From Solirubrobacteraceae bacterium (GTDB lineage: Bacteria > Actinomycetota > Thermoleophilia > Solirubrobacterales > Solirubrobacteraceae), in assembly GCA_036008645.1 (NCBI GenBank), contig DASYNI010000011.1, positions 59,107 to 123,106 of the forward strand: 64,000 nt of DNA. Direction: 5' to 3'. Numbering within the stretch: position 1 is the first letter of the stretch; the number at the start of each line of letters is the position of its first letter. A program made the position numbers and the translations under genes. A model generated the notes under the pieces. The model saw nothing but the letters and a program-made list of their open reading frames with translations, was not told the DNA's origin and did not search any database. Of the stretch, positions 38,001-56,401 are shown piece by piece.

Positions 38001-38046
38001 CGAGTGAGAAACATCCCTTTTCACACGGGACAACGGTCGTTAGAGT
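38001..38046 (+). promoter_or_regulatory. candidate promoter: CGAGTGAGA box + TTTTCA-N17-TAGAGT
   Basis: Box at 38001..38009, -35 at 38018..38023, -10 at 38041..38046, ~130 nt upstream of the collagen-like gene. The same box and spacing occur at 39200. Confidence 0.45.
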
Positions 38047-39042: not shown

Positions 39043-39072
39043 GACCGATCTGGCCGGCGTAAGTCGGTCCAC

Positions 39073-39106
39073 GGGGCGTGGAGGAGGTATACCTCCTCCA
39101 CGCCCC
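39073..39106 (+). terminator. perfect 34-nt palindrome/hairpin after the collagen-like gene
   Basis: GGGGCGTGGAGGAGGTATACCTCCTCCACGCCCC, 31 nt past the stop. There is no U tract. Confidence 0.6.
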
Positions 39107-39199
39107 GTCCCCGTTCCCTGCAGGAGCAACTTTGGACTGCGCTGGCGCGGGGACTGAAGTCGAATATAGGCTCACGCCCGCCTGAAGCACACGTATCCG

Positions 39200-39245
39200 C
39201 GAGTGAGAAACAGGGCTTTACATGCTTGGCGGCAGGTTGTACCTT
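39200..39245 (+). promoter_or_regulatory. candidate promoter: CGAGTGAGA box + TTTACA-N17-TACCTT
   Basis: Box at 39200..39208, -35 at 39217..39222, -10 at 39240..39245, ~165 nt upstream of the P1 start. Confidence 0.5.
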
Positions 39246-39251
39246 GATGTC

Positions 39252-39410
39252 GTGTCCGTCCCTCGGCGCGGGATGCATCCACGAACGTCCTGCATCTATC
39301 GACGAAGGCGACACGCGAAATCCGGAGATAGATTAGCTCCATCTTCGAGTAGGGGCTCCCTATCACCGTAATCAGCCTCTAAACGGGGCACATAAAAGGA
39401 GATTACGCTA
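39252..39410 (+). promoter_or_regulatory. long conserved 5' leader of P1 (candidate structured cis-regulatory RNA)
   Basis: Alignable with 48345..48498. A shared core GAAGGCGACACGCGAA(A)TCCGG, two hairpins with compensatory changes, then ATAAA(A)GGAGATT..GCTAATG. Confidence 0.4.
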
Positions 39411-39977
39411 ATGCGCAGTATCAAGATGTTCGCAGTCCTATTCGGCGTCGTGGTGGCGATTGTCGCCGTCGCATCCGCGTCGGCGTCTGCCGCTGCATTC
39501 TTATCGAGCGGAACCGGCACGCTCAGCGGAACACAGCTCGAATCACAGGTGTTCAAAACCGGCGCCGGCACGGTCACCTGTACGAAGCTGAAAGGGACGG
39601 GTTCAGTAACCGAAACCATGACTGAATCACAGAACGCGTCGATCCAGTATGAAGAATGCACCGCATTCGGCATCATCGAAGCAAAAGTGACGTTAGCTGA
39701 ATATTTATTCATGGCGAACGGTGAAGTCACAATCCAGAAAACGATTACCATTACAGCCCCGGGCTGCGAAATCATAGTGCCGGGCAGCAAAACGGTTAGC
39801 TCAGTAAGCTACAAAAACAAAAACAGCCAGATCGAAATCGTGCCGGCTGTGACTAACATTGAATCTGAAGGTAAAGGCGCGTTCTGCACCTACGCGAAAG
39901 AAACCAAAGGTACCTACAGCGGTACCTCGTTAGCTACACTAGGCGGCGGCACAATCAGCTGGAGCTCAGCAGGCTGA
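39411..39977 (+). CDS. small secreted 4-Cys protein, family copy P1
   Basis: Signal peptide ending ASASASA. About 160-aa beta-rich mature domain with 4 conserved Cys (VTCTKL, YEECTAF, PGCEII, AFCTYA) and an AEYLFMANGEV motif. RBS AAGGAG is 9 nt upstream. Confidence 0.85.
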   Translation: MRSIKMFAVLFGVVVAIVAVASASASAAAFLSSGTGTLSGTQLESQVFKTGAGTVTCTKLKGTGSVTETMTESQNASIQYEECTAFGIIEAKVTLAEYLFMANGEVTIQKTITITAPGCEIIVPGSKTVSSVSYKNKNSQIEIVPAVTNIESEGKGAFCTYAKETKGTYSGTSLATLGGGTISWSSAG

Positions 39978-39989
39978 CAAGGTGGTGGA

Positions 39990-40018
39990 TTGACTAATCG
40001 CTTGAGTGCGAGTAGCAT
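39990..40018 (+). promoter_or_regulatory. near-consensus promoter TTGACT-N17-TAGCAT
   Basis: -35 at 39990..39995 and -10 at 40013..40018, immediately after the P1 stop and upstream of the two hairpins and the 40154 gene. Confidence 0.4.
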
Positions 40019-40044
40019 GAAGTACGAGTAAGCATGTTGCGGAT

Positions 40045-40098
40045 GGCGGGGGCCCTCGGAGGGCCCCCGCCTTCCAATGTGCCGTGCACATTGGAAGG
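40045..40098 (+). terminator. two tandem strong hairpins (P1 terminator or leader attenuator of the next gene)
   Basis: Hairpin 1 is GGCGGGGGCCC-tcgga-GGGCCCCCGCC (40045..40071). Hairpin 2 is CCTTCCAATGTGC-cgt-GCACATTGGAAGG (40070..40098). Confidence 0.55.
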
Positions 40099-40153
40099 CC
40101 ATGCGGCTAAACATCGGTAGGCGCGCGGCTTATATGAGAGGGGAGTGGATGAC

Positions 40154-42685
40154 ATGGGGTCATATGACTTGGCAATCGTTGGAAGGAACACGACAAGAGC
40201 CGCTGGCATCGTGCGCAGTGTTCTACTCGTCGCTCTCGTCGCGGTCTGCTCTCTGATCTATGCAAATCGCGTGGCCGCTGCTCCGGTCCCGGCCACATGC
40301 CCCAATCGCCCTCTCCGGATCGGGCAGGCTGCCGAATTGCCTGACTGCCGAGCCTATGAGCAGGTGTCGCCGGTCGAAAGCGGAGGCTACAACGCTGTCG
40401 ATTGGGCCGGTTTGGAAACCGCGCAGGCCGCTGCGGGTGGCGAACGTGTCTTCTATCAGGGCAACACGGTCTTCGCCGGGGCTGGAGGAAACACCGCGGC
40501 TACCGCCGGCCATCTCAGCATACGCACGGAAGCCGGCTGGCGGACAATTGAATTGACGCCTAGCACGGCGACACTTGCTGCGGAGAAAGAAGGCTGGATG
40601 ATGTACCAGGGCGTCAATGAAGAATTGACCGAGATCATTTTCAAGGCGCCATTGGCATTGACGCCGTCCGCCAACCTCCTGGCCTTCAATCTCTATGCAC
40701 GCAACTTGTCAAGCGAACCTTCGTGGACCAGCCCGGAATACACGTGGATCAATGATTTGCCGTTGCTTGCGCCCGCATCGGAAATGTGCGACGTGCCGGC
40801 ACAGGTGGGCGTTTCACCGGAAAAGGCCAGTTGCTATTTCGCGGTCGGGTACGCTGGAGCGTCGTCTGATCTGCGACACATTCTCTTCGAGTCACAGATG
40901 CAGCTGATGGCTGGAGCACCCGCCTATGGCGTCGAAGCTCTATATGAAAACTCGGGTGGCGTCATACGGATCGTCGGCGTCCTGCCCAACGGTGAAATTG
41001 CCCCCACGGGCGCGACCGCGGGAGCAGGCAGCAGCACATACGCTCCGCGAGCAGCAAAACCACTGGAACCAGGGCGCGCAGACAGAAGAGTCGAACGCGC
41101 CATGGCGGCCAGCGGAGAAAGGTCCGTCTTCGAGGCCGAGTCGAACGAAGGCGAGGCTGACGAAGAAGGTCAGCGAGGCCTCGCCGAGGTCTATGACCGG
41201 ATTGGAAATTCGACCGAACACGCCAGCACCATAGAGCTGTCGGCACGGGCCGCCGGCGCTGCGCCAAAAGTGAGCAAAGCTGAGCCGGCGACTTTCTGGG
41301 CCGCGTCTACCGACGGATCGCGCGTTTTCTTCACCAGCAGCGCCGAGCTGACGAGTCAGTCAAATACCGGAGCGGCCAACGAAGGGAGCGACCTCTACGA
41401 AGCGCGGCTTGAAGAACAGGGAGCCAGCCAGCCGCCCAAGGTGGCGCTGAGTGACCTGAGCGTCGATAACACCGATAGCGCCGGCGCTGATGTGCTCGGC
41501 GTGGTGGGTGCATCCGAAGACGGTGAATACATCTACTTCGTGGCGGACGGCCAACTTGTGTCCGGCAAGGGTGTGGCCGGAAAGCCCAACCTGTACATGG
41601 AGCGAAATGCAGGTAGGCCGATCTTCATCGCTACGTTGCGCCCAGGCGTTGTTGGTGGTACTGTGCACGAAGAAGAACTCGCGCTCGGCGACTCGCTAGA
41701 TTGGACACAGTTTGGGGAAGTTCAGCGCGCTTACGTGACGCCTGACGGCCGGCATCTTGGCTTCATGTCGGTCGAAGAAGTTCCCACTGTCAACTTCCCT
41801 AGCGGCTATGACAACGTGGCCAGCGTGACGCAGGAACATGAGAGCGAGGTGTTCGAGTACAGCGCACCGAGCCCTACCGAAGAAGCGAAAGGGATGACCG
41901 GACAGCTGACGTGCGCCTCTTGTGACCCGACAGGCGCGCCGCCTACCGGAAACGCGTTCTTGGCGGGAACCGGCGACTCGCTGGGCAACGGGCCGAGCGA
42001 AGAAGAAGGACAGGAGACGCCGACGGCAGCGGGGAGCTCCTTCTTTCATCCGAGGTCTGTCAGCAACTCTGGTATGCGCGTATTTTTCGCAGCGACGCCA
42101 TTCACCAGCGAAACCGTCGCCAACAGCCAAGAGACGCCAGTCGCCAAGATTTACGAGTACGAGCAGGACGGCGAAGGGAGCTGTGCTACGCGTGTTGGTT
42201 GCACTTACCGGGTTTCTGGCGCGACGAATCCCACCCGTGATCTGTTCGTCGGCGCGAGCGCCGAAGGCGAAGATGTGTTCTTCGCGACGTACAGCCAGCT
42301 CACGGCGACCGATAAAAGTGCGCTGTTTGATGTGTACGACGCACGCATAGACGGCGGCTTTCCTGCAGCTACACCGGCGCCGGAATGCGTAGCAGGCTGC
42401 CGGTCGGCATCTACATCTGCAGAAGGTGCTCCCCTTGTAAGCGCTCTGGTGGGGCCTTCGGGCAACCTGGCACCGCCGGCATCGTCCGCCGGCAAATCCA
42501 TAAAATCACCCACCAAATCGAGGGAGCAGTCACCGTGCGTCATGAAGGCGAAGAAAATCAAGAACGCGAAAGCGCGAAAGCGAGCGCTCGGTCGCTGCTC
42601 AAAGAGCAAAGCTAGCGCCAGTCATGCTCGGGCGAGGAGAGACCATCGCCCGAGAGGTGGGCATTCGGCAGGGGCGGGACGATGA
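40154..42685 (+). CDS. secreted PD40/TolB-like beta-propeller repeat protein with basic C-terminal tail
   Basis: Signal/TM VRSVLLVALVAVCSLIYANRVAAAP. Repeated S-x-[DE]-G-x-x-[VIL]-x-F motifs (STDGSRVFFTS, SEDGEYIYFVA, TPDGRHLGFMS, SNSGMRVFFAA, SAEGEDVFFAT), each followed by an x-[LVI]-Y-[ED] motif. ATG at 40154 is 8 nt after GAGAGGGGAG; an alternative GTG is at 40145. Confidence 0.8.
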   Translation: MGSYDLAIVGRNTTRAAGIVRSVLLVALVAVCSLIYANRVAAAPVPATCPNRPLRIGQAAELPDCRAYEQVSPVESGGYNAVDWAGLETAQAAAGGERVFYQGNTVFAGAGGNTAATAGHLSIRTEAGWRTIELTPSTATLAAEKEGWMMYQGVNEELTEIIFKAPLALTPSANLLAFNLYARNLSSEPSWTSPEYTWINDLPLLAPASEMCDVPAQVGVSPEKASCYFAVGYAGASSDLRHILFESQMQLMAGAPAYGVEALYENSGGVIRIVGVLPNGEIAPTGATAGAGSSTYAPRAAKPLEPGRADRRVERAMAASGERSVFEAESNEGEADEEGQRGLAEVYDRIGNSTEHASTIELSARAAGAAPKVSKAEPATFWAASTDGSRVFFTSSAELTSQSNTGAANEGSDLYEARLEEQGASQPPKVALSDLSVDNTDSAGADVLGVVGASEDGEYIYFVADGQLVSGKGVAGKPNLYMERNAGRPIFIATLRPGVVGGTVHEEELALGDSLDWTQFGEVQRAYVTPDGRHLGFMSVEEVPTVNFPSGYDNVASVTQEHESEVFEYSAPSPTEEAKGMTGQLTCASCDPTGAPPTGNAFLAGTGDSLGNGPSEEEGQETPTAAGSSFFHPRSVSNSGMRVFFAATPFTSETVANSQETPVAKIYEYEQDGEGSCATRVGCTYRVSGATNPTRDLFVGASAEGEDVFFATYSQLTATDKSALFDVYDARIDGGFPAATPAPECVAGCRSASTSAEGAPLVSALVGPSGNLAPPASSAGKSIKSPTKSREQSPCVMKAKKIKNAKARKRALGRCSKSKASASHARARRDHRPRGGHSAGAGR

Positions 42686-45600
42686 TTTCGGTCGCTTACG
42701 CAGACCGGATTGCTTCAAGCCGGTGTCGAGCAGTAGCGGCTTTGCTCACGGCCGTGACAGTCGCGCTTACGTTGACGGCGTCCCCGGCGGCCGCGACGCA
42801 GACGCCTCATTGGGCGATGACTTCAATTCCGGCGCCGACATGGTTCCATCCTGGAGATGTCGACGACATATACGAAGTCGCCGCGATGAATGATGGTCCG
42901 GTATCGACCAGCGGACCGCTCACGATTACCGACAAGCTACCAAAGGGTCTGACCGTGGCAGCCATCACAGCCGACGTCGAGCCAGGCGCCACAGATGTTG
43001 CGCCAGCGCAGTTCGTGCCGTGCGAAGAAACGACCGCCGCAAAGATCGTAACGGTGACGTGTACGTCGGGCATTCCTGTGCACAGCGATCGGATGGTTGC
43101 GGTGAAGATCTCGGTTGATGTACCTACTAAGGCTACCGGCACCCTTTCCAACTTCGCGAGCATCTCGGGCGGAGGCGCGGAAACCGCGAGTGCGGAAAAC
43201 CTGACGCCGGTGACGCCTGTAGCGCAGAAGGCGCCCTTCGGCGTCTCGGTGGCGAGCGATCTCGTCGCTGACGATGGTTCGCCGGATATACAGGCAGGAT
43301 CGCATCCCTACGCCTACACGACGATCCTTGCGTACAATAGCGCGGGGATCAGCCTCGACGAAGAATGTGGCGCCGCGTTCGTCGTTTCCGGGCGGCAAAA
43401 TCCTGCCAACACCCAGGGATGTCCGAATCAGGCAGGAGCGCCCCGTAATGTCGAAGTGGCCCTCCCGCCAGGCTTCGTTGGCGACCCGATGGCCACGCCG
43501 CGCTGTATCGCACGCAAGTTCCAGACCGCCGGCTACCGTGGGTGTCCAGCTGCTTCCCAAGTGGGCGTCGCTGAACTGGAGTTCTTCGATAGCGAACTGA
43601 CCCAGAACCAGCTGGTGCCCATCTACAACGTCGAACCCACGCCGGGACAGCCGGCTGAGCTGGGCTTCAGCATCAGCACGATCGGCCATGTGGCGATGTT
43701 CTTCCATCTCCATCCCTTGGCGGACGGCGGCTATGCTCTGACGTCCACCGTTTCGCAGATAACTCAGTTTGTGAGTCTTCACGCACTTGTCTTTACGCTT
43801 TGGGGGGTGCCCGCGGAAGAATCTCATACACCGATCCGGCTCTCTGAAGCCGAGGGGCAAGAATGTGCGAGCGGAACCGACGAAGATTGCGCCGATCGTG
43901 CGGCTCCCAGACCGTTTCTCACGCTGCCGACGAGCTGCACCGGCGTTCCGCTCGGGGCGGGCGTCGGCGTCGACTCCTGGCAGAATCCGCTGGCTGCCCC
44001 GCTGCCGGTCACGGCGGAAGCGGGTCTCGGCACCATCACTGGGTGTGAAACGCTTGCGTTGGGCGAACCATCGATCGCCGTCGCACCGAGTACAGATCAA
44101 GCCGGTTCGCCTGCAGGCTATGGCGTGCGCATCGCGGTACCACAGAACGAGGAACCGGAAGCATTGGGCACACCCGATGTGCGCGATGTCCAAGTCACGA
44201 TGCCTGAAGGCACCGTGATCTCTCCGTCTGCCGCGAACGGACTGCAGGACTGCAGCTCAGCGCTGTTCGGGCAAGGCGAGGAAACTGTCGGTCACTGTCC
44301 GGCGCAATCGCGGATTGGGACGGTGCAGATCACCTCGCCGCTGCTCGATCAACCGATCACAGGCAACGTTTACGTAGGCGAACCAGAATGTTCGCCGTGT
44401 ACCGCACAGCAGGCGGAAGAAGGAAAGATGGTCCATGTTCTGATCGAAGCGAAGCTCACTAGTCCGCAGCGGGAAGCGGAAATGACGCAGACCGAAAGAG
44501 AAAACTACCGACCGGCTGTGCTGATCAAGCTTTCCGGGGACACCATGATCAACCGGCAGACGGGGCGCTTGACGACGGTGTTCGACGAAAACCCGCAATT
44601 GCCATTCAACGAACTCAATCTCGAAATCGAAGACGGGCAAGATGCACCGCTGGTGAACCCCACGTCCTGCGGGCCGATCGCGGCCACTGCTCATCTCACT
44701 GCTTGGAGCGCGCTTGTGAACGCGGAAGGCACGGTCAGTGACCCTGCCTCCGAAGCAAACATCTCGTCGTCGGCTGTATCGATTGGCGGCTGTGCCACCC
44801 CCGGGTTTTCTCCAGCCTTCTCGGCCGGCATGACGAGCAGCCAGCGTGCCGGTGCATTCAGCTCGTTTGCCGTCAACCTGCAACGGCCGGACGGCCAGCA
44901 GACCCTCGGCTCGGTCACGATGCACATGCCCCCCGGACTCGTTGGGATGCTCTCGAACGTGCAGTTGTGCGGTGAACCGCAGGCGAATGAAGGTACTTGC
45001 TCGGCGGCCTCGCAAATCGGCACGACCACCGCCGTGGTAGGTCCGGGTACCGAGCCCTATACGATCGGCGGAGGGAAGGTGTATCTGACGGGCCCGTATG
45101 GCGGAGGTTCCTTCGGACTTTCAATTGTGGTGCCGGCGGAAGCGGGCCCCTTCCATCTGGCCGGTCTCAACGGCGCGGGCGGCGAAGGCGACGGCAGCGT
45201 TGTGGTGCGCGGATCGATCAAGATCGATCCGACTACATCGGCGCTGACGATCGTGACCAATCCGATTCCGACGCAGCTGAACGGAATACCGCTCGACTTG
45301 CGGCATGTCACGGTCGAAGTGAACCGGGAAGGCTTTATGTTCAACCCGACGAATTGCGAAGCCATGACCATCGCGGGGACCATCGACAGCAGCTCTGGGG
45401 CGGTCGCAGATGTCAGCTACCCATTCCAAGCGGTGGACTGTGCGGCTCTGCCCTTCAACCCGAGCTTCGCAGTGGCGACGCATGCCAAGCACACGCGCAG
45501 GGATGGCGCCTACCTGCACGTGGATGTGACTTCCGGAGGTGGCCAGGCGAACATAAAGAGCGTTTTCGTCGAACTGCCAAAAGTCTTGGCCGCGCGGGAG

Positions 45601-46122
45601 GAAGCCCTCAAAGGTGCTTGTTCGGAAAAGCAGTTTGCTGGCAACCCGGCAGGGTGCCCGGCCGGCTCCTTCGTGGGTACGGCGACTGCCGTGACGCCGG
45701 TGCTCAACAAGCCGCTCAGCGGACCGGCGATCTTCGTCTCTCACGGCGGGGCAGCATTCCCCGATCTGGATGTGATGCTGCAGGGCGAAGGCGTGACCGT
45801 CGATTTGGCAGGCTCGACAAACATAGTCAAAGGCATCACCAGCTCCGACTTCAAGGCGGTGCCTGATGTACCAGTCACACGATTTGAACTCACGCTTCCG
45901 GAGCAAAAGAACGCCGCTCTGGCTGCCACGGCCAACCTTTGCTACCAGACCACCACCAAGCGCGTGAAGGTCAAAGTGCACGGCAAAACTGTCTACCGCA
46001 AGCACAGAACCGAGCAGCGTCGCACGCTGGTCATGCCCACCAAGATCACCGGCCAGAACGGCGCGGTAATCAACCAATCCACCAAGATCGCGGTCGAAGG
46101 ATGCGGCACGAAGGCTCGCTGA
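42682..46122 (+). CDS. 1146-aa secreted protein with four repeated Cys-loop modules (uncharacterised)
   Basis: Signal peptide ending SPAAA. A four-fold recurring motif [LM]P-x-G/K...C-x(8-13)-C-[PS]-x-x-S-x-[IV]-G. A QAGSHPY motif. ATGA overlap with the upstream gene. Confidence 0.85.
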   Translation: [1146 protein letters not shown]

Positions 46123-46244
46123 TGTGCAGGAAGTGTGGATAACAGCCAGTCGCATCGAGATATGGAAACACGGCGCGGTACAGAATCGGCGTGGTGGGGC
46201 GCAATCTTGGACCGCGCTTGCCGAGTGGGCAGTTGGCTGAAAAG

Positions 46245-46676
46245 ATGAGTGCAAGTATGCAGAGGGCCATTGATAAGCGGAAGGAGATAGTTGCGGTAGC
46301 TGTCATCGCAGCTATGCTCTCGCTGGCTGCATGTGGCGGCTCCTCAAAAGCGCCGAGTCAGACGGCGAACTCCGAAAAGACCAGCTCTACGCAATCACAG
46401 TCGAACTCGTCGAGTCAAACGAAGAGTGCAGAAACACAAAGTCCTTCGCGGTCTGCCGAAGAAGCGCGCGCGAAACGCGTGCTCGTGGCACGTATAGCCG
46501 GCACAAGGAACTTGGTCCAATGCTTGCGTGCACACGGGGTTCACGTGCCGCCGCAGAACCTTGCAAAGGGCTTCTCCGCCAAGGGCGTCGACTCAACCAG
46601 CAAGCAGTTCAGGCAGGCCTACCCGGGATGCCTTCGCGCCTCAGTTAAGGTGTACCACATCGCGTTGCAGGACTGA
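46245..46676 (+). CDS. small lipoprotein
   Basis: Lipobox AMLSLAAC followed by a GGSS and S/T/Q-rich linker. About 143 aa. The start is ATG 46245 or 46257. Confidence 0.65.
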   Translation: MSASMQRAIDKRKEIVAVAVIAAMLSLAACGGSSKAPSQTANSEKTSSTQSQSNSSSQTKSAETQSPSRSAEEARAKRVLVARIAGTRNLVQCLRAHGVHVPPQNLAKGFSAKGVDSTSKQFRQAYPGCLRASVKVYHIALQD

Positions 46677-46683
46677 GTGCTGA

Positions 46684-46708
46684 GAGCGCGCTGCCGCGCT
46701 TCTTCTTT
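46684..46708 (+). terminator. intrinsic terminator-like hairpin with T-rich tail
   Basis: AGCGCG-ctgc-CGCGCT followed by TCTTCTTTGG, between the convergent lipoprotein gene and purA. Confidence 0.5.
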
Positions 46709-46720
46709 GGAGCTCAAGCC

Positions 46721-48058
<1,338 letters not shown>

Positions 48059-48309
48059 CTACTAAGGGCGTTCGCTGGACATCGGCCTTTGCCTGCCTCC
48101 TCGGGAGCCCTCATTTTTCAGACCGGCCTTCTCGAAAACGACGGTCCCGTGCCAGCGATTGGTCGAACGACGGCAGAAGTGCTAGCGACGCGATGAGCCT
48201 CCGCGCGAGCCGCCTCGCGAAGGCGCTCAGGACCAGCGCTTGGTCTTTGTGTCGTACGCTGAGAGCGAAAGGTCGGGCAATACGATAATTCGTAAGAAGG
48301 AAATGCGTC

Positions 48310-48338
48310 TTTACAATTGCATCCGTGGGGTGTAAGTT
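48310..48338 (+). promoter_or_regulatory. candidate promoter TTTACA-N17-TAAGTT
   Basis: -35 at 48310..48315 and -10 at 48333..48338. Same hexamer and spacing as the P1 promoter, ~160 nt upstream of the P2 start. Confidence 0.45.
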
Positions 48339-48344
48339 GGTGCC

Positions 48345-48498
48345 GAGTCCATCCGCAGCACGCGATGCATCGACGCGATATCGGGCGCCGCCGGTGAAGG
48401 CGACACGCGAATCCGGCGGTCGGCTTGCGCCTTCGAACGGGAGCTTCCCTACCACCGTAATCCGCCCTGTAACAGGGCGGATAAAGGAGATTGTGCTA
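48345..48498 (+). promoter_or_regulatory. long conserved 5' leader of P2 (second copy of the P1 leader)
   Basis: Core GAAGGCGACACGCGAATCCGG at 48396..48416, hairpin GGCG-n9-CGCC, and hairpin CCGCCCTG-taa-CAGGGCGG at 48462..48480 just before the RBS. Confidence 0.4.
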
Positions 48499-49062
48499 AT
48501 GCTCAGTACCAAGGTGTGCGCAGCGGCGTTCAGCGCTGCGGTCGTGCTTGTTGCCGTTGGGTCCGCCTCGGCGTCTGCCGCGGCGTTCTTATCCAGCACA
48601 ACCGGCAGTCTCAGCGCAACTGCCCTCGAAACACAAGTGTTCAAAACCTTAGCCGGCTCCGTTGAATGTACCAAACTGACGGGGACCGGCTCGGTAACCG
48701 AAACAATGACGGAAACTCAGACGGCTTCGATCACGTACGAAAACTGCACCGCATTCGGCATCACAAACGCATCGGTCTCGTTAGCTGAATATTTATTCAT
48801 GGCTAACGGCGAAGTCACAATCCTGAAAACAATTACCATTACTGCCATCGGCTGCGAAATCATAGTGCCGAGCCAAACGGTTAGCTCGGTGAGCTACAAA
48901 AACAAAAGCGGCCAGCTCGAAATCGTGCCGAGCGTGACCAACATTGAAGTTGAAGGCAAAAATACTTTTTGCACCTTCCCCAAAGGCAGAGATGGCACCT
49001 ACAAAGGTGCCTCGTTAGCTACACTAGGCGGCGGCACAATCAGCTGGAGTTCAGCAGGCTGA
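48499..49062 (+). CDS. small secreted 4-Cys protein, family copy P2
   Basis: Colinear with P1 over its whole length (same signal-peptide end ASASASAAAFLSS, 4 Cys, AEYLFMANGEVTI, identical C-terminus SLATLGGGTISWSSAG). Confidence 0.85.
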   Translation: MLSTKVCAAAFSAAVVLVAVGSASASAAAFLSSTTGSLSATALETQVFKTLAGSVECTKLTGTGSVTETMTETQTASITYENCTAFGITNASVSLAEYLFMANGEVTILKTITITAIGCEIIVPSQTVSSVSYKNKSGQLEIVPSVTNIEVEGKNTFCTFPKGRDGTYKGASLATLGGGTISWSSAG

Positions 49063-49101
49063 CCTTCTGGCAGAGGGCGATTGATTGATTGACGCGATGG
49101 T

Positions 49102-49136
49102 GAGAGGCGCCGGAGCGCTCCGCTCCGGGGTCTCTC
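49102..49136. terminator. hairpin between convergent P2 and the dnaC-like gene
   Basis: GAGAG-gcg-CCGGAGCG-ctc-CGCTCCGG-ggt-CTCTC. Confidence 0.45.
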
Positions 49137-49872
49137 AACCAAGCTGCGACGGCAGCCGCAGCTCCCGCCTGCGGTCCTGCCCGTACAGCGGCAGCGGGTC
49201 TCCGCACATCTCCACGAGCCGCGAGACGGTGCGCTGCCCGATTTGCTCGCCGAGCTCGCTGGGGTCGAGGTTGGTCGTGACCACGATCGAACGGGAGTCC
49301 TCGTAGCGGGTGTTGACGATCGAATAGAGCTGCTCCAGCGCCCAATCGGTCCTGTTCTCGGCCCCAACGTCGTCGATATGCAGCAGATCGACGGTGGAGA
49401 GCCTGTCCAGGAAGCCGACCACCCCCTCCTCCTGCTCGATGGACTCCCTGATCAGGTTGAGCAGCCGCGGCAGGGAGTAGATCGCGACGGTGTGCCCTGC
49501 CTCCAGCGCCACGCGGGAAATCATCATCGCAAGCGCGGTCTTGCCCGTGCCGACATCGCCCATGATCCACACGCCGCGGCCCTGCTCCAGGTTCTCGGAG
49601 ATGTGGCCCGCGAACCGCCTCACCATCCGGATCTGCTCGGGGAACGCAGCCAGCATGTCTCCCTCCAGCTGCTCGAAGGAGAGGCCCACGTAGCGGCGCG
49701 GGATCCTCGCCTCCAGCCGAGCCGCCCGCGCCTGCGAGATTCGGCGCGCCCGGCAGCGGCAGTCAGAAGCCGTGTTGGTCTGCTCGTCGACAGCGAAACC
49801 GCTGCCGTCGCAGAGCCCGAAGGGGCAGGGGCCGCTCGACTCAGAGACCTGCTGTGTAGCCGGCTCGATCAC
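49135..49872 (-). CDS. DnaC/DnaI-like AAA+ helicase loader with N-terminal 4-Cys zinc module
   Basis: CPFGLCDGSG...CRC, then Walker A GDVGTGKT, Walker B LLHIDDVG, and sensor VVTTN. The GTG start overlaps the dnaB stop (GTGA). Confidence 0.75.
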   Translation of the reverse strand: MIEPATQQVSESSGPCPFGLCDGSGFAVDEQTNTASDCRCRARRISQARAARLEARIPRRYVGLSFEQLEGDMLAAFPEQIRMVRRFAGHISENLEQGRGVWIMGDVGTGKTALAMMISRVALEAGHTVAIYSLPRLLNLIRESIEQEEGVVGFLDRLSTVDLLHIDDVGAENRTDWALEQLYSIVNTRYEDSRSIVVTTNLDPSELGEQIGQRTVSRLVEMCGDPLPLYGQDRRRELRLPSQLG

Positions 49873-51263
49873 GCCGCGTAGCGCTCGCCGGCGTAGTTCA
49901 TGAACTTCGGGTACTCCTTCTGGAAGGTGAGCGTGACGTCGCCCGTGGCGCCGTTTCTGTGCTTGGCGATGATCAGGTCGGCCTCGCCGGGACGTTCTGA
50001 CTCCTTGTCGTAGTACTCGTCCCTGTATATGAACATCACCAGGTCGGCGTCCTGCTCCAGGTTTCCGGACTCGCGCAGGTCGGAGAGCTGCGGGCGCTTG
50101 TCGGGGCGCGTCTCTACCGCGCGGGAGAGCTGGGAGAGCGCGATCACCGGCACGCCAAGCTCCCTGGCCAGGATCTTCAGGCCGCGGGAGAGCTCGCCCA
50201 CGGCGGTGACGCGGCTGTCGTAGCGGCTGTCGGTGCGCATCAGCTGCAAGTAGTCGATGATGATCAGGCCGAGGCCGCCGGGCGCCTGGGTGTGCAGCCG
50301 CCGGGCCTTGGCCCGCAGTTCCAGCATCCCCACGTCGCTTGAGTCGTCAACCCACAGCGGCGACTCAGCCAGGCGCTCAGAGGCCTTCAGGATCTTCGGC
50401 CAGCGCTGCTCGGCGACGCGGCCCTTGCGCAGCTCCTCGCCCTTGATCCGCGCCTGGGATGCCACGAACCGCTGCGCGAGCTCCGCCTCAGCCATCTCAA
50501 GCGAGAACAGGGCGACGGGGCGCCCGTGTTCCACCGCGGCGTTCTCGGCGATGTTGCACACCAGCGCGCTCTTTCCCATCGCGGGGCGTGCGGCGATGAT
50601 GATCAGGTTGCCAGGCTGAAAGCCGCCGGTGAGCTCATCGAGATCCTTGAAGCCGGACGGCGTGCCGGTCAGCGAGGTGCCTTCAGTGGAAAGCCTGTGC
50701 AGCTTGTCCAGCTCCTCGTGCAGCACTTCCTCGATCCGGCGGAAGTCTTGTTGGCGATCGTCGCGCGCCACCTCGAGGATCGCCTTCTCGGCCTGCTCGA
50801 CGAGCTCGCGGGGCGCGGTGCCGTGGCCGAGGACGCTGCCCTGGATCTCATAGGAGGCGCTGAGCAGGCGCCGCAGCAGCGCGTTCTCACGCACGATCTG
50901 GGCGTAGCGGCGGGCGTGCCCGGCAGCAGGTACCGCCGCAGTGAGCTCATCCACAGCGGCCTGCCCACCGGCCCGATCCAGCTGGCCATCCTGGCGCAGA
51001 CGGTCGGTGACGGTGAGCACGTCGACCGGCTCGTTCTCGTTGTAGAGCGCGAGCATCGCAGCGTAGATCAGGCCGTTGCGCTCGTGGTAGAAGTCCTCGG
51101 CCTTCAGGCCCTCCTCGATCACCAGCGCATAGAGCGAGCGGTCCGAGAGCAGGATCGCGCCCAGCACGGACTGCTCCGCATCGAGGTTGTGCGGAGGGAC
51201 GAGCGGCGCGCTGCCCGCGCCGCTCGCAGCCGGGCCGCCTCCGTTTGTCGTCGCGGTGCTCAC
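49869..51263 (-). CDS. dnaB: replicative DNA helicase
   Basis: PPHNLDAEQSVLGAILL N-terminal domain, Walker A ARPAMGKSAL, IIIDYLQL, and a RecA-like C-terminal domain. Start is GTG at 51263 (alternative 51344). Confidence 0.92.
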   Translation of the reverse strand: MSTATTNGGGPAASGAGSAPLVPPHNLDAEQSVLGAILLSDRSLYALVIEEGLKAEDFYHERNGLIYAAMLALYNENEPVDVLTVTDRLRQDGQLDRAGGQAAVDELTAAVPAAGHARRYAQIVRENALLRRLLSASYEIQGSVLGHGTAPRELVEQAEKAILEVARDDRQQDFRRIEEVLHEELDKLHRLSTEGTSLTGTPSGFKDLDELTGGFQPGNLIIIAARPAMGKSALVCNIAENAAVEHGRPVALFSLEMAEAELAQRFVASQARIKGEELRKGRVAEQRWPKILKASERLAESPLWVDDSSDVGMLELRAKARRLHTQAPGGLGLIIIDYLQLMRTDSRYDSRVTAVGELSRGLKILARELGVPVIALSQLSRAVETRPDKRPQLSDLRESGNLEQDADLVMFIYRDEYYDKESERPGEADLIIAKHRNGATGDVTLTFQKEYPKFMNYAGERYAA

Positions 51264-51373
51264 CTGGCCGAGTTTAGGCGGGCGGGCGGGCGTCCAGGCA
51301 GGCCGTTGCCGCAAAGTGGGGGCTCGATGCGGTGCCGCCCACATACGAACATATGTTCGTGTACCATCGAGCC

Positions 51374-52492
51374 ATGGAGAGCCAGCCCGGTCACGATCCC
51401 TTCAGAGCAGCACTGGCAAGGGCCCGCTCGCGAGAGGCCCGCCACATCCGCAACTGCCTGCTTGCCGACCAGGTGCTCGGCGTCTTCGGAGAGGCCGAGG
51501 TCGGCAAGACGCAGACGATCCGGCAGGCGCTTGGCGGGAGCGCAATGCGCGTGTTGCGACTCGACCTGCGCTGGGCGGCCAGCTACGAGCACCTCGGGTT
51601 TCTGTTGGCCTGCGAGATGGCCAGAACGTTGGCGCCGGGATTTGCGCCTTCAAGCCTCGCCTATGGCGGGCGGCTGCCAGCGGCGGTTGAGCAGGCGCGG
51701 TCGCGACTGGTGGAGACGCTTGGCGGCGGCCTTCAGGAGGCTATGCGGCTCTGGCCCTCCGGCCGTTACGACTGGCCTGTGGCGCTGGAGAGCCTCGAGC
51801 TGCTCGCCCAGGCCGAGGAGGCATTGCTGTGGGTCGATCATCTTGAGGCTCCGCGTCTGTCCTTCCGGCATCCGCTGAAGCTCGCGCCGCTGCTCTGGAG
51901 CATCAGCGAGCTGGTGGAGCGGGCGCCAAACCTGCGTCTGCTTCTCTCCGGCCGCGAGGCGGCTAGAGCGGAGGTCGAGGCGCCCAGAGCGGCCTTCAGC
52001 GATCGCGGCCGCTGGCTCTCGTTGCACGCGCCATCGGCCGACGCCTGGTGCCAGGTCGCGGAGCTCGTGGATGCCGGCAGCGCTCTGGTAGCCGAGCTTG
52101 TCGACATGACGGCCGGGCATCCGCGCACGATGCTGTTGGCGCTTGCGAGCGTCGCAGGCCAGCCGGCTCCGCCGCCCGCCCAGGAGGTTCTGCTGGCGCT
52201 GGCCGAGCACGACGACGGGCTGGCCGCGCGGGCGATGGAACATGCGCGCTCGCTGCACCGGCTCGGAGGCCAGGCACTTACACAGGCGGCACTGGGACAG
52301 CGCCCCTACGCGACAGCCCAACGCGGCACGACCACCACCCAGGAGCTCAGCAAGGCGCTGAAGCGACTGCGGCTTGCCGGCCTGCTGCGCCACGAAGACA
52401 GCTGGAGGGTCGTCAACCCGCTGCTGGCGATGAGGCTGCGGGCGGCGTCCGCGCCCGAGTCGCCTACTTCTGTGCGACCACCATGGTCTTGA
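51374..52492 (+). CDS. AAA ATPase (archaeal-ATPase/ORC-like) with C-terminal winged-helix-like segment
   Basis: Walker A GEAEVGKT and Walker B-like ALLWVDHLE. The C-terminal segment ELSKALKRLRLAGLLRHEDSWRVVNPLL is DUF234-like. Confidence 0.6.
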   Translation: MESQPGHDPFRAALARARSREARHIRNCLLADQVLGVFGEAEVGKTQTIRQALGGSAMRVLRLDLRWAASYEHLGFLLACEMARTLAPGFAPSSLAYGGRLPAAVEQARSRLVETLGGGLQEAMRLWPSGRYDWPVALESLELLAQAEEALLWVDHLEAPRLSFRHPLKLAPLLWSISELVERAPNLRLLLSGREAARAEVEAPRAAFSDRGRWLSLHAPSADAWCQVAELVDAGSALVAELVDMTAGHPRTMLLALASVAGQPAPPPAQEVLLALAEHDDGLAARAMEHARSLHRLGGQALTQAALGQRPYATAQRGTTTTQELSKALKRLRLAGLLRHEDSWRVVNPLLAMRLRAASAPESPTSVRPPWS

Positions 52493-52916
52493 CCGTGGCG
52501 GTCACGCCGTCCACGACTTCGACCACGACCATGTAGGTGCCGAGGTTCTTGATCGGCTCAGGCAGGAAGACCTTGTTGCGGTCGAGCTTCAGACCGCGCG
52601 CGTCCTTGATCGCAGCGGAGATGTCCTGGGGTCCGACCGAGCCGAACAGGCGCCCGTCGGGGCCCGCCTGGGCTGAGATCGTGATCACGGTCTTGCCCAG
52701 CAGCGCGGCGTTCTCCTGCGCCTTTTCCTCGGCGTAGCGCTCGGCGCGCTCGGCGGCCATCTGGCGCCGGCGGACGTCCTCGATCGCGCCCTTGGTCGCC
52801 GGCTGGGCAAGTCTGCGCGGGATCAGGAAGTTGCGCAGGTAGCCCTTTGAGACATCGACGACGGCGCCCTTGGTGCCGAGCGGCTCGACGTCTTGGAGCA
52901 GGATCGCGTCAGGCAC
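52464..52916 (-). CDS. rplI: 50S ribosomal protein L9
   Basis: ILLQDVEPLGTKGAVVDVSKGYLRNFLIPRRLA; 150 aa. Confidence 0.93.
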   Translation of the reverse strand: MPDAILLQDVEPLGTKGAVVDVSKGYLRNFLIPRRLAQPATKGAIEDVRRRQMAAERAERYAEEKAQENAALLGKTVITISAQAGPDGRLFGSVGPQDISAAIKDARGLKLDRNKVFLPEPIKNLGTYMVVVEVVDGVTATVKTMVVAQK

Positions 52917-52925
52917 AGCTTGTTC

Positions 52926-53252
52926 CTAGCGTTCGCGGTCGCCGCGTTCGCGACGGCCGCCGGTGGCGTCGTCACGCCCGCCCTCGTTGACGTAGGGCAA
53001 GAGTGCAAGCGTGCGTGCACGCTTGACGGCCTTGGCGATCTGGCTCTGATGGCGCCTGCAGGCGCCGGTGATCCGCCGCGAGCGGATCTTGCCCTTGTCG
53101 GAGACGAAGCGACGCAGCGAGGCGATGTCCTTGTAGTCGACCTGCTCGATCTTGTCGCGGCACTGCGGGCAGGACTTGCGCCGGCCACCGGATTGGAGGC
53201 CACGCTTCTCCTTGCGCCTGCTGGGCTTGCTGCGTCCGCGTGCCTTGGCCAT
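52926..53252 (-). CDS. rpsR: 30S ribosomal protein S18
   Basis: [26 protein letters not shown]...[15 protein letters not shown]. Confidence 0.93.
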
Positions 53253-53290
53253 ACGGAGTTGGTCCTCGCTGTTTTCGCTTGCTGAAAGGT

Positions 53291-53755
53291 CTAAAAGGGG
53301 ATGTCCTCGTCGGCAACGGAGCCGACGGGGCTCGGCTCATAGTCTCGCTCATCGACCGGGACCTCGCCGCCACGGGCTGCTCCCGACCCCGCGAATCCGC
53401 CGCCCTGGCCTTCATCGCGCGAGCCTAGGAACTGCACCGAGTCGGCGATTATATCGATCGACTGCCGCTTTGCGCCCTCCGGGGTCTCCCACTCGCGCCA
53501 TTCCAGTCGTCCGTCGATCGCGACGGGTCGTCCCTTGGCCAGAAAGCGCGAGCAGTTCTCGCCCTGCGCGCCCCAGACCTTGACGTTGAAGTAGTTGGGC
53601 TTGTCCTCCCACTCGCCGGTCGAGCCGTTCTTGCGGCGCGTATTGCAGGCGATCCGCAGCTCGCAGACCGAGCTGCCGCTCGGCAACGCCCGCAGCTCGG
53701 GGTCCCTGGTCAGGTTTCCGGTGATGATCACGCGGTTGATGTTGGTTGCGGCCAC
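53291..53755 (-). CDS. ssb: single-stranded DNA-binding protein
   Basis: [18 protein letters not shown]-fold, a Gly-rich linker, and the acidic tip DEDIPF. Confidence 0.93.
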
Positions 53756-53963
53756 GGCTGCTCCTCTGCTTTCTTGACTATCTCTGTGCCCGCGGTCTAT
53801 GTGCGTCGGTCACTCCGCGGCGGGCGACGAATCGCGTCCCTCCGCAAGTTTAGAGTGATGACGGGCTGCGTACCCGCGAGCGGCGCAGCAAAGGCGCTAT
53901 TTGCTAGCTTTCGCATATCTGGCGGATGACCCGCTAGCACCAGATTTCGAGATCGCGAGCCGA

Positions 53964-53998
53964 GCTCGGGGAGTGCCCCAGCGGAGCCCTCCCCGAGC
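53964..53998 (-). terminator. 10-bp GC hairpin downstream of P3
   Basis: GCTCGGGGAG-n15-CTCCCCGAGC, ~45 nt past the P3 stop on the minus strand. Confidence 0.5.
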
Positions 53999-54039
53999 CT
54001 GAAACACCCGCGACCGGCGGCGGGCTGCTGACCAGCGGA

Positions 54040-54954
54040 TCAGCTTTTGATTTCGAATTTCAGTTCGATCGGATTGGCCGCGTTGCCGTATTCCAGCTTG
54101 TATTCCCCTTTCTTCCCGCCGGCCGCCGAGGTGATTTCGATTTCACATCTTGCGCCGCCAGCGAGAATCTCCCCACATTGTTCGGCGCCTTTGACTTCTT
54201 TGAGGCCGAAGTTACCTCCTTCGTTGACGGCCAGAACCCCAGGAATGTGTTCTGCGGTTTCGTTCAAGAACTGCCTCCTGAGAGCCCCGGGATTTCTGAG
54301 AATCAGATGGCGTGCTTTTTCTCCAGCGCCGAACGTAAACGGTTTGCCCGGGCCGACAAGTTCGCCGGCGCCGGCGGGTTCTCCGGTGACATTGTCGTTA
54401 TTGCCCACCTGAATTTCGCCGCCTTCCAGTTCGGTGAAAGCTGTACCTTTGTAGGTGCCTTCTTTTTCTTTGGCGTAGGCGCAGAAACTGCCTTTGCCTT
54501 CAGATTCAATTTTGGTCACGCTCGGCACGATTTCGATGCCAACGCCACGGTTTTTGTAAGCCACCGACGATACTGTCTGCGCCGGGACGGTGATTTCGCA
54601 GCCCGGGGCTTTTATTTCTATCGTTTTCAGGATTTTGACTTCGCCGTTAGCCATAAATAAATATTCAGCTAACGAGATTGATGCGCTTATGATGCCGAAT
54701 GCGGTACAGTCTTCATATTGGATCGAAGTCGTTTGCGTTTCCGTCGTTGTTTCGGAGACGGTGCCCGTCCCTTTCAGTTTCGTGCAACTGATGCTGCCGG
54801 CTTTTGTTTTAAATACCTGTGTTTCCAGCGCCGTGTCGGTCAGTTTGCCGGTTTTGCTCGCGACGAACTCTTCCGCTCCTGCCGTGCCGGCCAAAACGCC
54901 GCTGAGTGCGAGCGCGGCCGCGGCGACAAGGAAGCCTACGCGTGTTCTCTGCAT
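54040..54954 (-). CDS. secreted 4-Cys family copy P3 with extra C-terminal ASH/choice-of-anchor-D-like domain
   Basis: Signal peptide ending GTAGA. The N-terminal 190 aa is colinear with P1/P2 (ISCTKL, YEDCTAF, AEYLFMANGEV, PGCEIT, SFCAYA). The C-terminal ~110 aa has C-x(8)-C (EQCGEILAGGARCEIEI). Confidence 0.85.
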   Translation of the reverse strand: MQRTRVGFLVAAAALALSGVLAGTAGAEEFVASKTGKLTDTALETQVFKTKAGSISCTKLKGTGTVSETTTETQTTSIQYEDCTAFGIISASISLAEYLFMANGEVKILKTIEIKAPGCEITVPAQTVSSVAYKNRGVGIEIVPSVTKIESEGKGSFCAYAKEKEGTYKGTAFTELEGGEIQVGNNDNVTGEPAGAGELVGPGKPFTFGAGEKARHLILRNPGALRRQFLNETAEHIPGVLAVNEGGNFGLKEVKGAEQCGEILAGGARCEIEITSAAGGKKGEYKLEYGNAANPIELKFEIKS

Positions 54955-55174
54955 ATTGACGCTCCCTGATTGTCCTTGCAGTAAGAAGCGGCTCGGCGAG
55001 GCCATGTGGATTGTGATGCTGCCGTGAACCAGATCTGCGCCGCGCGGGACCCTTACTGACATTGGTACCTTCCCTGAAGGTGCCATGTTGGCAGTTGCGG
55101 ATGAGCTACGCAAGGTATGGTCGACTTGTGTTTCTGATTGCCCATGCGCCTAGCAGGCTGAAGTGCGCGGCTCT

Positions 55175-55198
55175 TGCAAAGGGGGCGCGTCTCACTCG
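55175..55198 (-). promoter_or_regulatory. third copy of the CGAGTGAGA box next to a TTTGCA hexamer (upstream of P3)
   Basis: The minus strand reads CCGAGTGAGACGCGCCCCCTTTGCA, ~200 nt upstream of the P3 ATG. No convincing -10 was found. Confidence 0.3.
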
Positions 55199-55213
55199 GC
55201 CTTTGCAGACCTT

Positions 55214-55243
55214 GCCGGGGAAGCGTCTGGACGCTTCCCCGGC
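55214..55243 (-). terminator. 14-bp perfect hairpin downstream of P4
   Basis: GCCGGGGAAGCGTC-tg-GACGCTTCCCCGGC, ~65 nt past the P4 stop. Confidence 0.55.
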
Positions 55244-55306
55244 ACCGGCCCTCGGGCTATCGCCCTTGCCGCACACCGGGCACCGCCCCCGCCCGCTGAG
55301 CGCTTA

Positions 55307-56211
55307 TCAGACTATGAGCGAGACTTTGTTTTTTGCATTGGCAGGACTGACCGCGGCTTCCCACTTTACGTTTTTTCGCCCGCCACGGTGACTTTGAGCA
55401 CCTTGACCCCGATGTCGCAGCTGGCGCCTACCCCATATAGCTTCGTTCTGCATTTCGGCCACTTTTGTGACTTCGTAGAAGCCCCCGACGGCTCCACCGC
55501 CCAGGCGTATTTCCGCCTCTGGAAGCGTGTTTGGCGTGCCCGCGGCCGTTCTGACATTTTCCACTTCGATCGTGCGTTCTTCCCCGGCTTTGGGCGGACT
55601 TTTCAGCGCGCCGCCAGGATTCCTGATTTCAAAGAGGGCGCCGCCACCACCGCCGCCACCGAATTCGATTTTGCCTTCCGCCAGTTCGACAAATGAATTG
55701 CCCGTATATGTGCCGGATTTTTCTTTGGAATAGCTGCAGGTTGTGCCCGTCCCTTCAGATTCTATGCCGCTCACGTTGGGTTTGATGGCCAGGCCTTCGC
55801 CAGAGTCCGTATAAGTGAGCGTGCCGAGCCCATTCTGGGCAGGCACACTAATCACACAATCAAGCGCTTCTACCGTCAGCGCTTTCTTGAGATCAACCAT
55901 GCCATTACTCATAAATAAATATTCAGCCGGCGAGATTTTGGCGGAAACGAAGCAAACGCGGTGCAGTTTTCGTATGTAACTATCGCCAACTGCGTTTCGG
56001 TAGCCAGTTCTTCGACCTCGCCAGTGACAGACAGTTTTGTGCATTCAATTTTGCCGGCTTTGGTCGTAAATGCCTGCGTGGACGTCGCTTTGCCCGAAAG
56101 CGCCCCGCCATTATTCGCGATGAACTCTTCGGCCGACGCGGTTGCGGCTGCGATGGCGAAAGAAGCCATCACTGCCACCACCGCGAGGCAAGTAAACCTG
56201 ATGCCTCGCAT
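55307..56211 (-). pseudogene. frameshifted copy P4 of the 4-Cys family (with C-terminal domain)
   Basis: The N-terminal part (MRGIRF...IECTKL...YENCTAF) is in the frame of ORF 55909..56463; the remainder (AEYLFMSNG...) is in the frame of ORF 55307..56044. The length of 905 nt is not a multiple of 3. A further compensated frameshift pair lies near 55380-55470. Confidence 0.75.
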
Positions 56212-56401
56212 ATGCCTAAATCTCCTATTTCGTGGTTCACGTGCGAGTGCGCGCTGCGCTCGCCTGTGCCATCGGCCGCCGGTCGAAGCAAGCGTCAAGC
56301 AACTAACTGTTTCTAACACGATGGCACCACCGTCGAGGGCGGATGAGATGCGCGGATCGGAGATGCGACGCCGGGCTGATCCTGGGCGGATCAGCTGTAG
56401 C

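Follow-up and report, generated by a model that had tools for sequence, protein, structure and literature searches.

What are four copies of one gene for a small secreted protein doing at scattered positions in a single stretch of actinobacterial DNA? The stretch (the window, used here for its full 64,000 nucleotides) comes from a Solirubrobacteraceae bacterium, contig DASYNI010000011.1, and the initial annotation had drawn attention to four dispersed copies, P1 to P4, of a ~160-residue domain with four cysteines. We think it somewhat probable that the P proteins are non-enzymatic extracellular structural or adhesive subunits, which work with collagen-like, propeller and immunoglobulin (Ig)-rich proteins, and that P1-P4 are paralogues of a Solirubrobacterales family. 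The four copies are as follows.

39411..39977, forward strand: P1, 188 residues; Sec-type signal (MRSIK...ASASA) and a ~160-residue, four-cysteine, all-beta domain; open reading frame (ORF) intact
48499..49062, forward strand: P2, 187 residues; ORF intact; 75% identical to P1
54040..54954, reverse strand: P3, 304 residues; P domain and a C-terminal region of ~115 residues with two cysteines; ORF intact
55307..56211, reverse strand: P4, best read as a pseudogene with three frameshifts; P domain and C-terminal region, split over two overlapping ORFs

An unnamed family of secreted four-cysteine proteins

The P family is large and unnamed, and has neither a Pfam model nor an analogue among solved structures. 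A full profile search recovers 3,955 cluster representatives (50% identity) at E <= 1e-3 and 2,021 at E <= 1e-10, while only 14 relatives were obtained with a word-indexed search; known relatives are annotated as 'hypothetical protein' in public data. Nothing matches P1, P2 or P3 in Pfam at E <= 0.01, NCBIfam returns only noise far below its cutoffs, and a Pfam/NCBIfam scan of 14 family members finds no family common to more than one of them. There is no P match in PHROGs or PADLOC, and a profile search against PDB sequences gives 0 matches at E <= 10. The description of P as a secreted four-cysteine domain outside the known Pfam families is therefore borne out by the hidden Markov model search and the structure prediction that it called for, the latter yielding a confident all-beta model. 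Its description as novel stands in the sense that the domain matches no curated family, but ~3,955 clusters of it were already public as hypothetical proteins. As far as it was sampled, the family appears to be one of the actinobacterial order Solirubrobacterales. An origin of P in phages, defence systems or plasmids was considered and rejected, given the absence of PHROGs and PADLOC matches and of relatives in viral contigs, phage records and plasmid records; the only resemblance to a phage tail fibre lies in the collagen repeats of a neighbouring gene.

All four cysteines are present in 172 of the 176 aligned domain instances of the wider family. The other best-conserved positions in these 176 instances are Phe, Tyr and Gly, and no conserved residue of catalytic type stands out. 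The signal peptide (MRxIK, a hydrophobic core and ASASA) and the first mature residues, xxF, are unusually well conserved, and export of the P proteins by the Sec pathway is predicted. The AlphaFold model of P1 (predicted local distance difference test score, pLDDT, 87.8; predicted template modelling score, pTM, 0.77) is an all-beta structure of 16 strands in which C57 stands opposite C83 in a long hairpin; judged by strand positions in this model, there are probably two disulfides, C57-C83 and C119-C159. Natural tandem arrays of two to four P domains joined by short linkers also exist (P0015-P0018, 348-816 residues), and hint at side-by-side assembly. Each repeat in these arrays opens with xxF, the motif found after the signal cleavage site in single-domain members.

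A profile built from the 14 family members detects P1 (E 1e-77), P2 (1e-75) and P3 (3e-78) as well as P4, which is recovered as two fragments (E 1e-31 and 2e-28). The repeat finder likewise reports P1 and P2 as direct repeats of one another and as inverted repeats of P3 and P4, so that the four copies are confirmed at the positions given by the initial annotation. P1, P2 and P3 are identical to VGP17_05335, VGP17_05355 and VGP17_05390, respectively, which are hypothetical proteins of a Solirubrobacteraceae metagenome-assembled genome (MAG); the start of P3 in the NCBI annotation (P0003) lies 17 codons further upstream. Three-frame translation of P4 places the first frame switch between CTAF and AEYLFM, where there are 26 nucleotides (nt) against 27 in P3, the second ahead of the first cysteine of the C-terminal region, and the third at an A6 run near the end. 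Because 15 other genes checked at 38-59 kb are all intact, P4 is best read as a pseudogene rather than as an assembly error.

Once the first P4 frameshift is repaired, the four P domains are colinear. A ~160-residue domain is thus common to all four copies as proposed, but P4 is decayed, and at the C-terminal end of P3 and P4 there is an additional region of ~115-130 residues with two more cysteines. The four cysteines and the AEYLFM(A/S)NG block were found in every copy, whereas the proposed fourth cysteine motif, xxC[TAS]Y, fails for P2, which has FCTF. Amino-acid identity is 75% between P1 and P2, 60-62% between P3 and P1 or P2, and 43-48% between P4 and the others. Judged by this range (43-75%) and by synonymous divergence (dS 0.47-2.7 among the copies, with ratios of nonsynonymous to synonymous divergence, dN/dS, of 0.19-0.45), the copies are not recent. 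The 18-nt block encoding AEYLFM, GCTGAATATTTATT(C/T)ATG, lies at 39693-39710, 48784-48801, 54668-54685 (reverse strand) and 55910-55927 (reverse strand), and is identical in P1-P4, synonymous sites included and one C/T position excepted, despite dS values of up to 2.7; the same motif is written in different codons in other genomes.

The C-terminal region of P3 has no family match in hidden Markov model searches. We considered for it an ASH or PapD-like identity on the basis of a Cys...Cys strand pattern seen by eye, and of an ASH-type comparison in which the relative P0021 reaches Cep192_D4 at E 5e-6, below the cutoff; direct comparison lends the idea no support, as BLASTP shows no similarity between the P3 region and that of P0021.

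The island around P1 and the slots of the backbone

Two features of the setting were missed by the initial annotation. The first is a conserved island in which P1 is the resident gene for the small protein, and whose other members encode a collagen-like protein, a PD40 propeller protein (PROP) and a large multi-Ig protein (BIG).

38176..39042, forward strand: collagen-like exported protein, 288 residues (ATG at 38176); G-x-y repeats plus globular C-terminal part; Pfam Collagen E 4e-9
40145..42685, forward strand: PROP, an exported PD40-type beta-propeller protein of 846 residues
42682..46122, forward strand: BIG, an exported multi-domain beta protein of ~1,100 residues; 1,101 from the annotated start

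The collagen-like gene contains a 9-nt periodic repeat (D1), and its product has Scl-like NCBIfam matches far below cutoff. A homologue is present in the island of L001, a closely related genome with flanks 83-86% identical to the window at the DNA level, and similar genes occur in L053 and L081. PD40 matches 15 of 23 members of the PROP family (best E 7.6e-11). BIG has 1,239 homologues, all of them named hypothetical or TIGR01451/DUF11, and its AlphaFold model (pLDDT 88) is a chain of beta domains with Foldseek matches to the Ig-like domains of PrgB (1.7e-12), antigen I/II C123 (5.6e-7), integrin legs and mastigoneme proteins; neither PROP nor BIG has a sequence match among solved structures. 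Both proteins end in short, strongly basic tails with a conserved cysteine (...CVMKAKKIKNAKARKRALGRC... and ...AVEGCGTKAR), which recur in homologues and may be an envelope-anchoring or sorting feature.

The order of a small protein, a 740-850-residue protein and a 1,085-1,160-residue protein is seen in three independent contig sets (L001-L005), and the order of small protein, propeller and BIG in ~20 further genome loci. BIG served as probe for a scan of GTDB species genomes, the 14-member P alignment having no stretch conserved enough, and 363 related stretches were obtained. The best 80 of these 363, from which the taxonomy is taken, all belong to Solirubrobacterales or to unclassified Actinomycetota MAGs, often with several per genome. 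A propeller gene lies directly upstream of BIG in almost all of the 79 loci fetched with BIG as well as in L001-L005. A clear P-family gene stands ~3 kb upstream of BIG in ~20 loci, often with a second copy after BIG; in other BIG loci, the propeller gene is preceded by genes for more divergent small cysteine proteins whose signal peptide is of the same kind. Second P-family copies after BIG are common in related loci (L003, 17372-18175 on the reverse strand; L006-L011), and the second copy of L006 has its own TTGACA-17-TAnnnT site, on which grounds extra promoter-bearing copies would seem to be a general habit of the family.

The second feature is that P2, P3 and P4 occupy recurrent accessory-gene slots. 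The backbone of rpsF, a fatty-acid hydroxylase gene, ssb, rpsR, rplI, dnaB, a dnaC-like gene and purA is kept in relatives, with gaps that vary. Slot contents in L001 and in relatives L090-L097, the latter collected through homologues of the hydroxylase gene, compare with those of the window as follows.

Hydroxylase-ssb slot, window: P4 and P3
Hydroxylase-ssb slot, L092/L093 and L097: empty
Hydroxylase-ssb slot, L094 and L095: VapBC
Hydroxylase-ssb slot, L090/L091: a different P-family gene (401 residues, E 6e-24, 29-31% identical to P1/P3)
Hydroxylase-ssb slot, L096: RHS island with a distant P-like gene
dnaC-like-purA slot, window: P2
dnaC-like-purA slot, L001, L090 and L092: empty
dnaC-like-purA slot, L097: PIN module
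dnaC-like-purA slot, L094: secreted cysteine-rich protein of 241 residues

Because the contents of these slots vary among genomes, P-family genes behave as accessory cargo of recurrent hot spots. The island is variable too: in L097, purA is followed directly by the helix-turn-helix gene that bounds the other side of the island in the window, the whole island being absent. Between the window and L001, purA is 89.5% identical at the protein level, and the corresponding values are 39% for P1 and its counterpart P0013, 43% for BIG and 31% for the propeller. The G+C content of the window is ~68-70%, that of 38-50 kb only 58-62%, and that of 54-56 kb 56%. A scan of the whole window finds no RNA-element match in Rfam, and ARAGORN finds no tRNA in it.

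Several neighbouring genes deserve mention. The gap contents of relatives L090-L097 (corresponding to 46.7-57.6 kb of the window) also include Fic genes and a SLFN-like ATPase. Between the island and purA lies a lipoprotein-like gene of 161 residues (46191-46676, forward strand); because a similar gene (124 residues, compared by eye) adjoins purA in L092, it is probably a backbone gene and not an island gene. The gene next to P2 (49135-49872, reverse strand) matches IstB/IS21 and DnaA ATPase models. It neighbours dnaB in all relatives examined, so that it is probably not a component of an insertion sequence but a helicase-loader-like housekeeping gene. Finally, an ORF of 386 residues with no family match (51332-52492, forward strand) sits between dnaB and rplI on the opposite strand, overlapping the ends of both genes. 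It is probably a real, uncharacterised gene, because genes of similar size (372-373 residues) stand in the same place in L090, L092 and L095, the L090 product being visibly similar.

Putative promoters and the duplicated unit

P1, P2 and the collagen-like gene are preceded by promoter-like sites, and the other upstream and downstream elements of interest are listed with them.

38005..38046, forward strand: promoter-like site of the collagen-like gene; box TGAGAAAC at 38005-38012, TTTTCA at 38018-38023, 17-nt spacer, TAGAGT at 38041-38046
39193..39410, forward strand: putative promoter and leader of P1; TGAGAAAC at 39204-39211, TTTACA at 39217-39222, 17-nt spacer, TACCTT at 39240-39245
48299..48338, forward strand: promoter-like site of P2; GGAAAT at 48299-48304, TTTACA at 48310-48315, TAAGTT at 48333-48338; leader to 48498
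55130-55137, reverse strand: upstream box TCAGAAAC of P3, a sequence pattern
56309-56316, reverse strand: upstream box TTAGAAAC of P4, a sequence pattern
39071..39108, forward strand: palindrome after the collagen-like gene, perfect 19+19 nt, 100% complementary (I13); terminator-like hairpin
40041..40075, forward strand: G+C-rich hairpin after P1, 17-nt arms, 94% complementary (I21); terminator-like

P1 and P2 have in common a GAGAAAC/GGAAAT box, TTTACA, a 17-nt spacer and TAnnnT; the P1 leader is ~160 nt long, with AAAGGAG as ribosome-binding site. Upstream of the collagen-like gene, 5 nt separate TGAGAAAC from TTTTCA, and the 23-nt block there matches its P1 equivalent at 83% identity (family D15). 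The 1.84 Mb of fetched loci contain 8 instances of the strict pattern RGAAAY-N4-5-TTKACR, and seven of these eight sites, representing five independent sequences, sit 184-205 nt upstream of a P-family ATG. The architecture of these putative promoters is thus conserved across copies and genomes. P3 and P4 keep only the short upstream (T)xAGAAAC box, a recognisable leader being common to P1 and P2 alone. A hairpin-forming stretch was also seen by eye 3' of the P3 stop codon.

The possibility that the leader is a structured cis-regulatory RNA (a riboswitch or similar) was rejected: the leaders have no Rfam match, their single-fold stability is ordinary (z = -1.2 and -1.3), and six leaders share no structure, with a consensus fold of -1.2 kcal/mol. 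Two leader blocks are shared by P1 and P2, GAAGGCGACACGCGAA at 39304-39319 and 48396-48411 (16/16 identical) and TCCCTAYCACCGTAATC at 39357-39373 and 48446-48462 (16/17 identical). They are found nowhere else in the window, and may be regulatory sites.

Pairwise alignment of P1 and P2 shows that DNA similarity runs from ~39193/48283, just upstream of TTTACA at 39217/48310, to ~39980/49065. Identity is 69% in the 190 nt of promoter and leader and 80% in the coding sequence, and falls to 52-53% in the flanks (300 nt on each side), under the shuffle controls. Because a co-duplicated neutral flank would still be recognisable at a dS of 0.47, the unit begins just before the -35-like hexamer and ends at the stop codon, as the initial annotation had claimed together with the unrelatedness of the flanks; the hairpin after P1 (40041-40075) lies outside it. 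The further claim of a self-contained expression cassette holds for the P1/P2 pair, but P3 and P4 share only the short upstream box. P2 occupies a ~1.1-kb segment (48051..49149, forward strand) between purA and the dnaC-like gene, and is read as an insertion because L001 has only ~37 nt there. P1 and P2 therefore provide a clean case of exact promoter-to-stop gene duplication, lodged in a conserved block of replication and ribosomal genes.

How the copies moved was also considered. The ORF list, the family scans and the repeat finder output show neither a transposase or recombinase nor a flanking inverted repeat at the copies, in agreement with the initial annotation on transposases and inverted repeats, and no integrase or recombinase gene is encoded at 37.5-57.5 kb. 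A passenger of an insertion sequence or transposon was rejected, as flanking inverted repeats are absent and the IstB-like ATPase by P2 adjoins dnaB with or without P2. An integron gene cassette was likewise rejected, as the copies have their own promoter-like sites and there is neither an integrase nor a common end sequence. A 31-nt direct repeat, AGCTGATCCGC..., brackets the P4+P3 block (54015-54045, reverse strand, and 56366-56396; 74% identity, family D10). One copy lies directly after the hydroxylase stop and the other over the P3 stop, and each can form a hairpin; the repeat could be a target duplication or a chance match.

That an unrecognised, site-specific system of mobile cassettes, integron-like and inserting at hairpin-bearing intergenic sites, carries the copies as its cargo is in our view very improbable. 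The sharp ends of the duplicated unit, the use of the same two slots for different cargo in each genome and the 31-nt repeat around P4+P3 could all be explained in this way; against it stand the lack of an integrase or recombinase, the absence of relatives on plasmids, phages and viral contigs, and the repeat itself, which is only 74% identical and has an 11-nt core that is not enriched in the window. Moreover, the stretch that follows the hydroxylase gene shows no conservation from genome to genome, nor can an att-like consensus be made out in it.

A proposed surface structure and its rivals

On the reading of the P proteins as structural or adhesive surface subunits, each copy encodes a precursor, predicted to be Sec-exported, whose mature part is the ~160-residue, all-beta, four-cysteine domain. 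P1 would be the resident copy of an accessory cell-surface island, in which it is joined by a collagen-like fibre protein, an adhesin-like multi-Ig protein and the PD40 propeller. A housekeeping-type promoter-like site precedes P1, P2 and the collagen-like gene alike (TTTACA/TTTTCA, 17 nt, TAnnnT) with a (T)GAGAAAC-type box ahead of it and a long leader after it. P2 stems from duplication of the stretch from promoter box to stop alone, and is now placed between purA and the dnaC-like gene; P3 and the decayed P4 are placed between the hydroxylase gene and ssb. The P proteins would be abundant, and would join the collagen-like protein, the propeller and the Ig-rich protein in making up a fibre or surface layer, with the paralogues supplying variant subunits.

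A number of results weigh against this proposal. The structure provides no functional lead, since Foldseek searches of PDB and BFVD with the P1 model give nothing at E <= 1e-3 and a best TM-score of ~0.3. Only a minority of BIG loci have a clear P-family gene, and the island encodes no sortase motif, usher or dedicated peptidase. In profile-profile comparisons of P with the propeller and BIG, the signal peptides alone matched, for which reason we also rejected the idea that P is a free-standing copy of a propeller or BIG domain. The proposed promoters were not called in a generic promoter/terminator scan. In addition, P genes across the family have a G+C content of 0.53, against 0.65 on average for the loci, and a third-position value (GC3) of 0.61; this low GC3 and the rare TTA codons are not what strongly expressed genes of a G+C-rich genome usually show. 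TTA accounts for 21% of the Leu codons in P-family ORFs (P1-P4 and L001-L018) against 0.45% in the high-GC3 ORFs of the window, and among 19 window genes checked it occurs only in P genes. In Streptomyces and other G+C-rich actinobacteria, a single tRNA can make rare TTA codons a gate on translation, as in bldA-dependent genes, and by analogy P-gene translation might be gated in the same way.

Of the other readings, it is unlikely, in our judgement, that P proteins are free secreted binding proteins (lectins, or scavengers of small ligands or metals) that act independently of their large neighbours and differ in specificity among paralogues. A small, disulfide-stabilised, all-beta domain with a signal peptide would suit such a role, as would the many paralogues away from the island, and the weak top folds include the ligand-binding HtaA CR domains, nitrobindin and designed barrels (TM ~0.3, probability at most 0.35). 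These fold matches are not significant, however, and no His, Asp, Glu or Lys is conserved for a ligand, Tyr and Phe alone being conserved; independence of the neighbours also sits poorly with the retained order of small protein, propeller and BIG, and with the promoter box common to P and the collagen-like gene. We regard as less credible still a role for P proteins in conflict between bacteria or with phages, as diversifying effectors or as partners of such effectors (bacteriocin-like proteins, receptor decoys or exclusion factors, for example), with an arms race accounting for low G+C, divergence and hot spots. P genes do share slots with toxin-antitoxin modules and with an RHS toxin island that itself holds a distant P-like gene, divergence of P and the island is much more rapid than that of the genes on either side, and the low G+C is family-wide (0.53 vs ~0.65 for the loci). 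Nevertheless, P matches nothing in PADLOC or PHROGs and no toxin family, none of P2, P3 and P4 has an immunity-like partner gene beside it, and dN/dS values of 0.19-0.45 denote purifying rather than positive selection overall; loci for surface structures also show the same pattern of variability.

Returning to P proteins as surface subunits, a more ambitious version may be put forward tentatively, as a doubtful possibility. P, the collagen-like protein, the PD40 propeller and the multi-Ig protein would together form a new surface fibre or layer of Solirubrobacterales in which P would be the main subunit, with a fold new among solved structures; promoter-bearing units would have spread to hot spots and generated strain-specific surface variants, with translation perhaps gated by TTA. 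Solirubrobacterales are actinobacteria that abound in soil and whose cell biology has hardly been approached by experiment. Should the module form a surface structure, this envelope feature would define the lineage, and would be likely to be targeted by phages and by strain-level diversification. The present analysis defines an unnamed family of thousands, tied to a recurring multi-copy gene module of surface type; the P family merits a domain model, and the pair of propeller and BIG merits annotation as a unit.

Several known systems invite comparison. BIG, like PrgB of Enterococcus and antigen I/II C123 of streptococci, is predicted to be an exported and variable string of Ig-like beta-sandwiches. 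This match is BIG's and not P's, there is no sequence homology, global TM-scores are 0.11-0.22, the BIG C-terminus lacks an LPXTG anchor when inspected by eye, and the propeller and four-cysteine partners have no counterpart there. Collagen-like fibre systems include Scl of streptococci and the BclA nap on the small, cysteine-rich ExsY/CotY basal layer of the Bacillus exosporium. In the window, too, an exported collagen-repeat protein is encoded beside small cysteine proteins, with one of which it shares a promoter box. P has no sequence or fold relation, however, to ExsY/CotY or to any other solved protein, it has Sec signals, and the Scl matches of the collagen-like protein are far below NCBIfam cutoffs; the hosts of P are not known to form spores.

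Subunits of pili and fibres (chaperone-usher/SCPU proteins, sortase pilins and TasA) resemble P in size, signal peptide, all-beta structure and the presence of several paralogues, and also in gene order, with the subunit gene first, then a hairpin, and larger genes downstream. P differs in having no family match, and the island in having no usher, chaperone or SipW-type peptidase. P was rejected as a sortase pilin because the C-termini (...GGGTISWSSAG in P1 and P2, ...LKFEIKS in P3) include neither LPXTG nor a membrane anchor, and because no sortase is encoded at 37.5-57.5 kb; a sortase gene in relatives lies several kb off, in the backbone, with or without P genes. It was rejected as a chaperone-usher/SCPU subunit because no such Pfam domain is present and the neighbours are propeller and Ig-rich proteins, and as a TasA/camelysin fibre because there is no NCBIfam or Pfam match and no peptidase gene in the island. 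Accessory hot spots that hold toxin-antitoxin or RHS genes between core genes are a further parallel, P2, P3 and P4 lying in slots that hold VapBC, PIN or RHS elsewhere; here, in contrast, the cargo is a promoter-bearing gene for a secreted protein without a known selfish or defensive role, and mobility genes are absent. No description of the family, of its apparent fold or of the four-gene module exists in the libraries and literature searched, the latter yielding nothing on either family or module; their kind is the familiar one of a paralogous family of secreted surface proteins in a variable island.

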